A stretch of DNA of 63,431 nt, taken from assembly GCA_947165365.1 (NCBI GenBank), contig CAMVAF010000005.1:1-63431 (forward strand), in the 5' to 3' direction. Numbering within the stretch: position 1 is the stretch's first letter; every line of letters starts with the position of its first letter. Of this stretch, positions 28,705-31,446 are shown piece after piece. The notes below the pieces were generated by a model. That model saw nothing but the letters and a program-made list of their open reading frames with translations. It was not told the origin of the DNA and ran no database searches. The DNA is from an uncultured Clostridia bacterium. GTDB taxonomy: Bacteria; Bacillota_I; Bacilli_A; RF39; UBA660. The position numbers and the translations under genes were made by a program.

Positions 28705-29277
28705 TTACTTTTTTCTTACTTTAGATAGTACTTTTTGTTCAGTAGGATAAACCAATTGATAAAAATCATCTTGGCTAATATCAGATATGGATAATGGTTT
28801 TCTTTCATCATATTGATAAAATTTTGTACTATTTTTTAACAAAATACTTACTATATCATGATAGTTCATTGCCGTAAAGCAATGATTACCTTCAATATCT
28901 TCATTATCCTGATCTTTATTTTTCATATCAACATAAACTAACATATTTTTGCAATGATAGATCATCGCATCAACTTTAATACCTGGTTCATGTAATTCAA
29001 TAATTTTACTTTTTTTATCATATTTAATCATGGGTAAAATAGGTGCATCATATTTATATAATATTTTATAAAAATTCTTAATATCTTCTTTTCGAGTTAA
29101 ATTGTAATTTTTTAAAATCTCTTGTGGTATATAATCAATATATAAATATTCATATTTATTATCCCTATCAGCATTTTCCAAACATTTAAAAAAGCTTTTA
29201 TCATCTTCCACATTCATTTGTTTAATATCTATTATATCATCAAAATATATTTTATTTACTTGTTTTTGTTCTTTCAT
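28705..29277 (-). CDS. hypothetical protein
   Basis: 190-aa ORF with an AGAGGAAATT SD region. No motif recognised. Confidence 0.6.
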   Translation of the reverse strand: MKEQKQVNKIYFDDIIDIKQMNVEDDKSFFKCLENADRDNKYEYLYIDYIPQEILKNYNLTRKEDIKNFYKILYKYDAPILPMIKYDKKSKIIELHEPGIKVDAMIYHCKNMLVYVDMKNKDQDNEDIEGNHCFTAMNYHDIVSILLKNSTKFYQYDERKPLSISDISQDDFYQLVYPTEQKVLSKVRKK

Positions 29278-29418: not shown

Positions 29419-30417
29419 TTAAAATAATCTATCCTGATATTCTATTTCAAGATGTTCGTATGCCTTTTTAGTAACTACTCTTCCTCTTGCAGTTCTTTTA
29501 ATATATCCATTTTGCAACAAATATGGTTCATAAACATCTTCTATCGTACTAATTTCCTCTCCAATACTAGAAGCAATTGTTTCAATTCCAACAGGTCCTC
29601 CATTAAATTTTTCAATAATAGCGCGTAAAAATTGGTGATCTGTTTCATCTAATCCTACTTTGTCCACTTTAAGTCTAGATAGGGCCTTATCCGTTATTTC
29701 ATTATTAATCTCTTCTAATCCTTCAACAAGGGCAAAATCTCTTACTCTTTTAAATAATCGATTAGCAATTCTAGGCGTTCCCCTACTTCTTTTAGCAAGA
29801 GATACCGCAGCATCATGTGATATTGGCATATTAAGAACACGACTAGTTCTTTCAATAATCATTCTAAGCTCATCTTCATCATAATATTTAAGTTTACAAG
29901 TGATTCCAAATCTATCCCTCAAAGGACTTGTTAAATCTCCTGCTCTTGTAGTTGCTCCAACTAAGGTAAATGGTGGTAAATCAATTTTAATACTTCTTGT
30001 ATTGTTATCACTTCCTACAACAATATCTAAAGTGAAATCTTCCATCGCCGGATAAAGTATTTCTTCAATAAATCTAGGCATTCGGTGTATTTCATCAATA
30101 AATAAGACATCTCCTGGTTCAAGAGTTGATAGTATCGCTGCCAAATCCCCTGACTTTTCAATAGCAGGACCAGACGCTGTTTTAAGTTCACTTCCAAGTT
30201 CATTGGCAATAATATTAGCAAGAGTTGTTTTACCAAGTCCTGGTGGACCATATAAAAGCACATGATCAAGTGGTTCATTTCTCAATTTAGCAGCTTCAAT
30301 AAAAACTTTAATATTTTCTTTTACTTCACTTTGACCAATATATTCATCAAGACTTTCTGGTCTTATGCTACTATCCTTATCTTCATTTAATTCTTTAGTA
30401 TCAAGTACATCTTCCAT
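29419..30417 (-). CDS. ruvB: Holliday junction branch migration helicase RuvB
   Basis: [11 protein letters not shown], Walker [10 protein letters not shown], Walker B FIDEIHR and sensor TTRAG..PLRDRFG are all present. Confidence 0.96.
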
Positions 30418-30512
30418 TAAAACACCATCCTTCTATTTCTTTCTAATTGTATCATAATAATAATTATTATTTATTTTATTTGACAATATTTTTACAAATT
30501 TATTTTTTTATT

Positions 30513-30620
30513 TCATTCAAAATTTGTTTTTGTATTGAATCTATATCTATAAAAAACAAGTTTATGTCTCCTTTTTTTTATTTCATTAATATGATACAAA
30601 TAACCCGTTTTAATTTTCAT
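30513..30620 (-). CDS. putative 35-aa basic peptide (MKIKTGYLYHINEIKKRRHKLVFYRYRFNTKTNFE)
   Basis: GGGGA lies 7 nt upstream of the ATG. Located between the tandem repeats and ruvB. Contains an A8 run. No homology recognised. Confidence 0.25.
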   Translation of the reverse strand: MKIKTGYLYHINEIKKRRHKLVFYRYRFNTKTNFE

Positions 30621-30694
30621 AAAATCATCCCCAATAACAAATATATCACATTATAAAAGAAAACTCCATTATAATGATGAAGCTTCTTACATTT

Positions 30695-30795
30695 TCAACC
30701 GGGATTATTTATCACTCGCAAACCACCCGGAAGCGAGAAACATTGTCGACCGGGATTATTTATTACTCGCAAACCACCCGAAAGCGAGAAACATT
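30695..30795 (-). repeat. two tandem 51-bp GC-rich repeats, candidate structured RNA units
   Basis: 30698-30744 and 30749-30795 are identical at 45 of 47 positions. Each unit carries interleaved complementary pairs CUCGC/GCGAG and (C/U)CGGG/CCCGG. Strand assignment rests on the loop geometry. Confidence 0.8.
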
Positions 30796-30888
30796 TACAC
30801 ATGAATTTCTTCATTGCATAATTAATATACTATAAATTTACGAAAATGTTAAATAGTATATCACCATTATTATATGTATTTTTATTAA

Positions 30889-31446
30889 TTATTTACCAAC
30901 TAATAATCTTAAAGCTTCCTTAATTTGTTCTTCAATAGATTTTTCTTTATCTACTTTTAAGATAACCGTCTTAATTTCTTTTTCTTTATAACCAAGTCCT
31001 TTTAAAGCTTCTAATAGTTCATTATCAGTATTTTCTTCTTCTATAACACCAGAGATAACAAGTTTCCCTTTTAAATCTAGAATCATTTGTCTTGCTAATT
31101 TATCACCAATTTTAGGAAATTTCTTTAAATATAAGATATTTTCCCTATTAATAGCATCTGCTATCCCATTAATACTTCCCATAGCAATAATAGGAAGAGC
31201 CATCTTAGGGCCTAATCCTTTAACATCAATTAATTTTAAAAATAATTCTTTCTCTTCATATTTTTTAAATCCATATAAACTATGTTCATCTTCTCTTATA
31301 TAATCATAGATATAAACAGTATATTCTTTGTTTTCTCCAAATGAATAAGGATTAGGTGTATATATTAAATAACCAATTCCATTATTATCTAAGGTAATAC
31401 TATTACTATTTATCTCCATAACCATACCTTTAATATAACTATACAT
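30889..31446 (-). CDS. ruvA: Holliday junction DNA helicase subunit RuvA
   Basis: MYSYIKG...GIGY...ELFLKLIDVKGLGPKMAL (HhH) with a C-terminal domain III. 185 aa. Confidence 0.93.
   Translation of the reverse strand: MYSYIKGMVMEINSNSITLDNNGIGYLIYTPNPYSFGENKEYTVYIYDYIREDEHSLYGFKKYEEKELFLKLIDVKGLGPKMALPIIAMGSINGIADAINRENILYLKKFPKIGDKLARQMILDLKGKLVISGVIEEENTDNELLEALKGLGYKEKEIKTVILKVDKEKSIEEQIKEALRLLVGK

Follow-up and report, generated by a model that had tools for sequence, protein, structure and literature searches.

Why are ruvA and ruvB separated by 471 bp on the minus strand of the window (the whole 63,431-nt stretch of DNA that was analysed), and what is the tandem repeat that lies between them? 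The ruvA ORF occupies 30889-31446(-) and the ruvB ORF 29419-30417(-), and in relatives whose RuvA is ~80% identical the two genes are only 2-10 bp apart, so that the gap is indeed as unusual as the earlier note had considered it. This note had described two GC-rich direct repeats in the spacer, each drawn as an H-type pseudoknot, and had proposed an orphan or novel cis-regulator of ruvB, a new repeat RNA or a relic type III antitoxin, likening the geometry to that of small pseudoknot aptamers among others and adding that the element fitted none of the classes that it knew. We find that the locus is a known system in decayed form, a member of the CptIN type III toxin-antitoxin (TA) family, and not a new RNA class. 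More precisely, we are highly confident that the repeats are the cptI array of a CptIN cassette that had been inserted immediately behind the stop codon of ruvA and whose cptN toxin gene then suffered a deletion of ~350 nt, leaving the array as an orphan relic. The long distance between ruvA and ruvB is thereby explained by a decayed mobile TA cassette.

The tandem repeats and their pseudoknot

Tandem Repeats Finder (TRF) detected the array at 30689-30796 (2.1 copies of a period of 51, with 91% matches and a score of 188) as the sole long-period repeat of the whole window (Table 1). The segments 30698-30744 and 30749-30795 are identical at 45/47 positions, and a 23-nt core (CTCGCTTYCGGGTGGTTTGCGAG) is found exactly twice in 63 kb when up to 3 mismatches are permitted, when shuffled sequences would be expected to give 0 occurrences. 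The GC content reaches 0.45 at 30700-30799, compared to 0.11-0.25 in the flanking spacer. Both copies contain the CUCGC/GCGAG and YCGGG/CCCGG complementarities that form both stems (S1 and S2); the copies differ by only two substitutions, a C to U change in the first pair of S2, which gives a U-G wobble, and an A to G change in the A-rich loop. The array ends with a partial copy, as does every homologous array (0.1-0.2 copy), and this partial third repeat would supply the sequence located 3' of a putative processing site after unit 2. The unit boundaries given in Table 1 are proposed by analogy with the E. rectale CptI product, which ends in ...GUUGA.

Table 1. Positions of the cassette elements and of neighbouring features in the window.
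Feature	Position	Strand	Description	Basis
Cassette promoter (predicted)	30824..30852	(-)	-35 TTAACA 30852-30847, 17-nt spacer, -10 TATATT 30829-30824	consensus scan
Leader hairpin	30801..30814	(-)	AUGAA-GAAA-UUCAU, after the predicted transcription start and before repeat 1	sequence
CptI repeat unit 1	30746..30796	(-)	51 nt, AAAUGUUU...GGUCGA
Unit 1 S1	30788-30784 with 30770-30766	(-)
Unit 1 S2	30781-30777 with 30754-30750	(-)	UCGGG with CCCGG
Unit 1 A-rich loop	30765-30755	(-)
CptI repeat unit 2	30695..30745	(-)	51 nt, CAAUGUUU...GGUUGA
Unit 2 S1	30737-30733 with 30719-30715	(-)
Unit 2 S2	30730-30726 with 30703-30699	(-)
Unit 2 A-rich loop	30714-30704	(-)	UGAUAAAUAAU, unusual G at loop position 2
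Partial third repeat	30689..30694	(-)	AAAUGU	TRF, 2.1 copies
Intrinsic terminator (predicted)	30655..30684	(-)	stem 30684-30677 with 30669-30662, then UUUUCUUUU
5' cptN remnant	30583..30632	(-)	RBS GGGGA 30632-30628; ATG 30620-30618; MKIKTGYLYHI..
3' cptN remnant	30500..30589	(-)	last ~25 codons (..KKGDINLFFIDIDSIQKQILNEIKK), stop 30502-30500; frame differs from that of the 5' remnant
Promoter-like motif upstream of ruvB	30457..30486	(-)	TTGTCA-18-TATTAT, outside the cassette	consensus scan only

Homologous arrays were divided into individual units, the two units of a locus being non-identical, and 63 distinct units were aligned; the ten pairs of the pseudoknot, exactly as drawn in the earlier note, were then counted on this alignment (630 cells). 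Standard pairs were found in 97.6% of the cells, compared to a mean of 89.5% for shuffles, none of which reached the observed value (0/500). Double-sided, compensatory changes were seen in 7/10 pairs and all five S2 pairs covary, with S2 appearing for example as CCGGG/CCCGG, CUGGG/CCCAG, CCAGG/CCUGG, CCUGG/CCAGG, CCGAG/CUCGG or CUGGA/UCCAG and S1 as CUCGC/GCGAG, UUCGC/GCGAA or UCCGC/GCGGA. When the 3' partners were slid by 1-3 columns, pairing fell to 23-48% and double changes nearly disappeared. The A-rich loop, UAAUAARURAU, is near-invariant across units. Judging from this comparison of sequences, the H-type pseudoknot, with its 5-bp S1, short U-rich L1, 5-bp S2 and long A-rich loop, is real. 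Both window copies are still fully pairable, their sole stem change being the one from C-G to U-G. The descriptive part of the earlier note, including the repeat count and identity, the local GC richness, the fold and its tolerance of the two substitutions, was thus borne out, and the covariation test that it had suggested for both stems came out in its favour.

An Rfam search, also suggested there, returned no relevant family: cmscan on the spacer (30350-30950, both strands, E<=10) gave just three chance matches to snoRNA/lncRNA families, and the whole window at gathering thresholds gave tRNA alone, with nothing in the repeat region. Nested minimum free energy folding gave unremarkable z-scores on either strand (-1.25 and -1.6), as expected since the proposed fold is a pseudoknot, and these scores speak neither in its favour nor against it. 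The 49/51-nt CptI units described here are absent from Rfam, and an RNA family model could be built from their strong natural covariation.

The ruvA-ruvB site in relatives and the fate of cptN

The closest relatives were found by a RuvA search, and their contigs were fetched so that the ruvA-ruvB spacers could be compared. One relative with 90% RuvA identity has a 125-bp spacer without repeats, while the closest ones (RuvA 95-99% identical) have a spacer in which repeats are followed by a CptN-family gene. In L002 and L003 (RuvA 99% identical), the spacer is 822 bp long and contains the same two repeats and then a 100-aa gene which, in L002, gives a 157-aa protein when read across a one-base frameshift. 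In L091/L092, the repeats are accompanied by an intact 156-aa gene (P0121, a 97% identical version), again between ruvA and ruvB. P0121 matched the NCBIfam model NF047359 (‘type III toxin-antitoxin system CptIN family toxin’) with 160.9 bits for a cutoff of 90, and the frameshift-corrected L002 reading did so with 154 bits. The L002 toxin also matched the Eubacterium rectale CptN of known structure (PDB 4RMO) over nearly its full length (residues 4-149, E=1.1e-18), while Pfam and PADLOC searches with the toxin gave no match. L002 and L003 differ from L091 by one additional A, in a run of A6 instead of A5 (L002:4100-4115; same site in L003). This identical +1 frameshift, present in two independent assemblies, represents a second and independent way in which the toxin was inactivated at this site.

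The window was aligned to L002/L091 by affine-gap pairwise alignment. It is ~99% identical to them from the ruvA stop codon through the repeats, the terminator, the RBS, the ATG and the first ~12 codons of cptN; ~350 nt of the gene are then missing, the deletion starting at 30583, and homology returns for the last ~25 codons and the stop codon (30589-30500), in another frame. The 5' remnant, which tblastn matched to toxin residues 1-13 with 85% identity, continues out of frame as a 35-aa ORF (30513-30620), the longest one left; the 3' remnant matched residues 129-157 in tblastn and aligns with the C-termini of intact CptN proteins. Residues ~1-12 and ~132-156 are thus all that is left of cptN in the window, whereas an intact CptN-family toxin has about 150-160 aa, and no second cptN was found within the 63 kb. 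Since the toxin gene is not intact, we filed the locus as a relic and not as a working TA system. These remnants (RBS, start codon and ~12 codons at 30620-30583, last ~25 codons at 30589-30503) had been overlooked by the earlier note; together with the CptN alleles at the same site, they single out the relic type III antitoxin as the correct one among the options that it had listed and give the array a class, CptI of the CptIN family. With L091 intact, L002 frameshifted and the window deleted, a single chromosomal site displays three toxin states, each with a full array, and in this clean allelic series decay starts with the toxin, the antitoxin array being retained.

The 3' remnant (..INLFFIDIDSIQKQILNEIKK) encodes a protein sequence that is only ~50% identical to the L002/L091 allele, although both of its flanks are ~99-100% identical, and it is similar to ‘..INLFFTDIDKIK..’ alleles from other species. 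Such a divergence indicates that the history of the locus exceeds one simple deletion, and an allele swap or replacement, or recombination, probably preceded the deletion.

Beyond this site, 2582 toxin homologues were found at E<=1e-5, and 424 toxin loci in species-representative genomes, nearly all from uncultured gut Bacilli (rabbit, human (Hadza, Nepal), goat, chicken and other hosts), which documents a large CptIN subfamily in these bacteria. In all 80 loci fetched from other species, cptN lies directly downstream of the cassette, and ruvA or ruvB was found within 2.5 kb in none of them (0/80), showing that the cassette moves and that its ruvA-ruvB position is specific to the window species. 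TRF detected a repeat with a period of 49-52 and 2.0-2.2 copies in 70/78 regions upstream of the toxin, and exactly two full units are present in 75/78 upstream regions of cptN homologues from other species. Some genomes (L026, L041, L065 and L079, and also L138, L149 and L152) carry two cptIN cassettes or arrays in tandem, ~0.8-0.9 kb apart, and the S2 sequences and unit lengths of such pairs often differ (49 versus 51 nt). In IMG/VR, a single viral contig contained the repeat motif, and it also contains cptN. The predicted viral, 63-kb L093/L094 (IMGVR_UViG_3300011008_002676) carries a 74% identical cptN homologue with a matching CptI unit, and more distant cptN genes (43-46% identical) occur in four further viral contigs.

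Cassette elements, proposed mechanism and alternative readings

At least 70 species of gut Bacilli keep the full cassette (promoter, leader hairpin, 2.1 repeats, terminator, and RBS with toxin start). TTGACA-17-TATATT is found at a fixed distance upstream of the repeats in nearly all of 75 loci homologous to it; the window -35, TTAACA, carries a G to A change compared to L002/L091 and to the family consensus. Conservation across loci extends to the ~30 nt upstream of the -35 (30853-30886 (-)), where a TATACTA motif is repeated (..AATATACTATTAATGTATACTATTTGACA..), which could be an UP element or an operator; this conservation implies that only a few bases separate the start of the cassette from the ruvA stop codon. 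The pairing of the leader hairpin is kept while its sequence varies, as seen by eye in other loci (CACUU-GAAA-AAGUG, GUAC-UGAAAA-GUAC, CCAUU-UAC-AAUGG). A simple terminator scan detected none, overlooking the terminator because its stem is AT-rich; it was seen only in the comparative fold, where the RNAalifold consensus of 40 distinct homologues has 9 pairs, 6 of them compensatory, and then a U tract. Its loop-closing pair is broken in the window (C.A), where L002/L091 have a G. Considering the altered -35, the A to G change in the loop of unit 2 and this broken pair, the array itself may be decaying.

After the terminator come a Shine-Dalgarno sequence and then the toxin start. Between the terminator and the cptN RBS, ~28 nt before the start codon, lies an extended -10-like motif, TGnTAnnnT, which reads TGATATATT in the window (30640-30648 (-)) and TGGTATACT in most loci; it is present in 58/70 distinct loci, compared to 24% of shuffles, and may be a separate toxin promoter, a feature absent from the ToxIN paradigm. 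Further downstream, the promoter-like motif that precedes ruvB (TTGTAAAA..ATTGTCAA) also occurs in the cassette-free spacer of L004 and appears to belong to the native spacer, so that it could serve ruvB despite the cassette terminator.

Based on what is known of the E. rectale CptIN system, an intact cassette would be transcribed from its sigma-70-type promoter into a short RNA made of the leader hairpin and 2.1 repeats, most transcripts ending at the intrinsic terminator, and the CptN endoribonuclease would be expressed by read-through or possibly from the internal extended -10 promoter. CptN would then cut the repeat transcript after the A of GUYGA, the likely processing site, releasing 51-nt units. 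Each unit would adopt an H-type pseudoknot fold, its A-rich loop lying in the minor groove, and would bind CptN and keep it inactive, the complex being a 2:2 ring in E. rectale, and a drop in antitoxin supply would free the RNase to arrest the cell. Processing, cleavage site, 2:2 complex and antitoxic activity are carried over from E. rectale here, and the conserved GUYGA/AAAUGUUU junctions are consistent with a cleavage into single units ending with a 2',3'-cyclic phosphate and with toxin neutralisation. In the window, no toxin can be made, and the orphan array, with no cognate partner within 63 kb, would probably still be transcribed from its weakened promoter and terminated, and be left unprocessed. 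The cassette terminator would then uncouple ruvB from ruvA transcription.

Could the repeats instead act in cis on ruvB, as tandem aptamers of a riboswitch or attenuator with a preQ1-I/SAM-II-like geometry? The resemblance to small H-type pseudoknot aptamers, the intrinsic terminator between the repeats and ruvB, and queA, which follows ruvB in some relatives such as L009, would all suit such a regulator. Yet the terminator is a part of the cassette that precedes the start of cptN rather than that of ruvB, which has a separate promoter-like site downstream of the cassette, and the element is absent from close relatives in which ruvA and ruvB are adjacent. In at least 70 other species, the cassette precedes cptN with neither ruvA nor ruvB nearby (0/80 loci, always with cptN directly downstream), and no Rfam family was matched even at E<=10. 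We consider this reading very improbable and reject it on the distribution of the cassette and the lack of an Rfam match, so that the ‘novel riboregulator of ruvB’ is removed from the candidates; the small-molecule aptamer and the new repeat RNA are likewise not supported. The gene that follows ruvB in the window is not queA; a 190-aa ORF located 3' of ruvB (28705-29277 (-)) has no NCBIfam match.

A 39-aa ORF (MKKFMCKCFSLSGGLRVINNPGRQCFSLPGGLRVINNPG, 30695-30814, minus strand) spans both repeats, and this is precisely the interval that the earlier note had delimited, leaving the ORF itself unmentioned. A repeat peptide, for example a RiPP precursor or a signalling peptide, might be encoded there, since the 51-nt period corresponds to 17 codons and holds the frame, and the ORF is also open in L002/L003. 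Its ATG, however, has no upstream Shine-Dalgarno sequence and is buried in the leader hairpin, an ORF spanning both units exists in just 6/75 homologous arrays, and in 27 arrays the frame is broken by a 49-nt period. Within the ORF, the window and L002 show three differences, all of them non-synonymous (3/3), substitutions track RNA base-pairing, and the ORF has no family match. The missing Shine-Dalgarno sequence, the rarity of spanning ORFs, the frame-breaking periods and the non-synonymous changes leave a coding role hardly any probability. A dispersed REP/MITE-like repeat devoid of RNA function, which GC-rich, palindrome-containing, intergenic sequence could bring to mind, has next to no credibility either: only two copies exist in 63 kb and they are in tandem, they come with a constant promoter and terminator and usually beside cptN, and compensatory changes hold the pseudoknot on one strand. 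Copy number, fixed context and strand-specific covariation thus rule against it.

The last alternative accepts the CptI identity of the array and proposes that it is selected as a free antitoxin against a closely related CptN, made from another place in the genome or brought in by a mobile element or phage (‘anti-addiction’ or immunity). A repeat-first scan of metagenome contigs, with the S2' strand left out of the search pattern, bears on this question. It yielded at least 120 stretches with at least 124 arrays, 101 of which had enough downstream sequence. Among the matches listed, 62/101 of these arrays are followed by a full-length toxin match, 22/101 by partial or fragmented ones, a few of which may be intact but divergent, and 17/101 by unrelated neighbour genes with no toxin match; several arrays with partial matches are followed, like that of the window, by an ‘N-terminus plus C-terminus’ combination. 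Arrays with a broken or missing toxin are thus common among the matches listed (about 39/101, ~40%). S2 pairing is kept in 12/14 and 12/13 orphan units, compared to 26/28 units near intact toxins, still among the matches listed. Three of the loci (L116, L175 and L218) have orphan arrays of 3-4 units with a terminator, directly upstream of an ftsK-like gene (MVKNMAKKKKRKNSDEGKV...), and no toxin remnant was found at these arrays.

The frequency of toxinless and partial loci, the orphan S2 pairing, the two window pseudoknots that remain fully pairable with a single C-G to U-G change, and the two cptIN cassettes found in some genomes (L026, L041, L065, L079) can be cited in favour of free antitoxins. 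Pairing kept in orphans nevertheless fits recent toxin loss equally well, as do the flanks that are ~99% identical to those of intact alleles; in addition, the 63-kb window has no second cptN, a CptI RNA shows high selectivity for its cognate toxin (PMC4627078), and in the window copy the -35 is weakened and one loop base is unusual. We therefore find this reading unlikely. If it was true, such arrays would protect against CptN from other loci or from incoming plasmids or prophages, or against its phage-triggered release, and toxin loss with antitoxin retention would be a recurrent and selected outcome in gut Bacilli. The orphan relic of a CptIN cassette remains our preferred reading, and such a relic locus leaves the known workings of type III systems unchanged.

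Comparison with known systems

Type III loci are defined by their promoter-repeats-terminator-toxin architecture, and the CptIN family was defined by Blower et al. in 2012 (PMC3401426). CptI arrays consist of ~2-3.4 direct repeats immediately upstream of cptN: the window has 2.1 repeats, followed by the start codon and first 12 codons of cptN, and in L091/L092 it is an intact cptN that follows. The predicted pseudoknot with a long A-rich loop, the predicted terminator before the toxin and the predicted promoter at the start of the array are also as in CptI loci. The 51-nt unit (49-52 nt in the subfamily) lies marginally beyond the 40-48 nt of the 33 cptIN loci of the 2012 survey (PMC3401426), a range that is descriptive rather than mechanistic.

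Like the preQ1-I and SAM-II aptamers, the window unit is predicted to fold compactly as an H-type pseudoknot whose minor groove holds an A-rich strand, and the likeness to ToxI/CptI and to SAM-II-style loops that the earlier note had pointed out was apt, since CptI has a SAM-II-like A-minor twist (Rao et al. 2015, PMC4627078). Unlike these aptamers, it has neither an Rfam match nor the conserved ligand-binding nucleotides, it is found in a toxin-gene context and not with metabolic genes, and its tandem units would be processed. With ToxIN (ToxI, 36-nt x 5.5 repeats, and ToxN of Pectobacterium atrosepticum) and AbiQ/antiQ, the CptIN cassette shares the principle of a repeat RNA that the toxin processes into inhibitory pseudoknots and of a terminator that sets the antitoxin:toxin ratio, but these systems have a toxin of another family, shorter and more numerous repeats, triplex-type loops instead of an A-minor twist, and a 3:3 triangular complex.

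Loci of the cptIN family with full repeats but toxins shortened to 45-101 aa were already known (PMC3401426). As in one such case, Bryantella formatexigens DSM 14469 (45- and 66-aa toxins), the window has kept a full array and a terminator beside a toxin gene that is cut down to little. What sets it apart from this type of locus is the series of intact, frameshifted and deleted toxins seen at one site in near-identical strains, and its residual 35-aa ORF, which shares just ~12 residues with CptN.

The closest characterised counterpart is the CptIN system of E. rectale, whose 45-nt CptI_Er is listed as AAGUUUACCACUGACCGAUAUGUGGUAUAUAAAUGGUCGGGUUGA by Rao et al. 2015 (PMC4627078) in their primer table, with a numbering that agrees with residues G13, A29, U30, G35, G44 and A45 of the text. 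Both are chromosomal loci of gut Firmicutes in which promoter, ~2 tandem repeats, terminator and toxin follow one another in this order, and in both the unit is an H-type pseudoknot, predicted in our case, with an A-rich loop containing interspersed U. The toxin of the allelic loci is a CptN homologue, yet only distantly similar to CptN_Er, and the deletion of the toxin gene leaves the window without a working TA pair. Element by element, with CptI_Er given before the window unit, the 5' tail is AAGUUU versus (C/A)AAUGUUU, S1 is ACCAC/GUGGU versus CUCGC/GCGAG, L1 is 1-2 nt versus UU, S2 is CCGAU/GUCGG versus YCGGG/CCCGG, the S2-to-S1' junction is 2 nt versus 6 nt (4 in the 49-nt class), the A-rich loop is AUAUAAAUG (9 nt) versus UAAUAAAUAAU (11 nt), with AUAAAU in the loop, and the 3' tail is GUUGA, cut after A45, versus GUYGA. 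The units are thus 51 nt long (49 in the sister class) instead of 45, the surplus residing in the S2-to-S1' junction and in the A-rich loop, and, as far as its sequence tells, the window unit is a CptI of greater length whose elements come in the same order.
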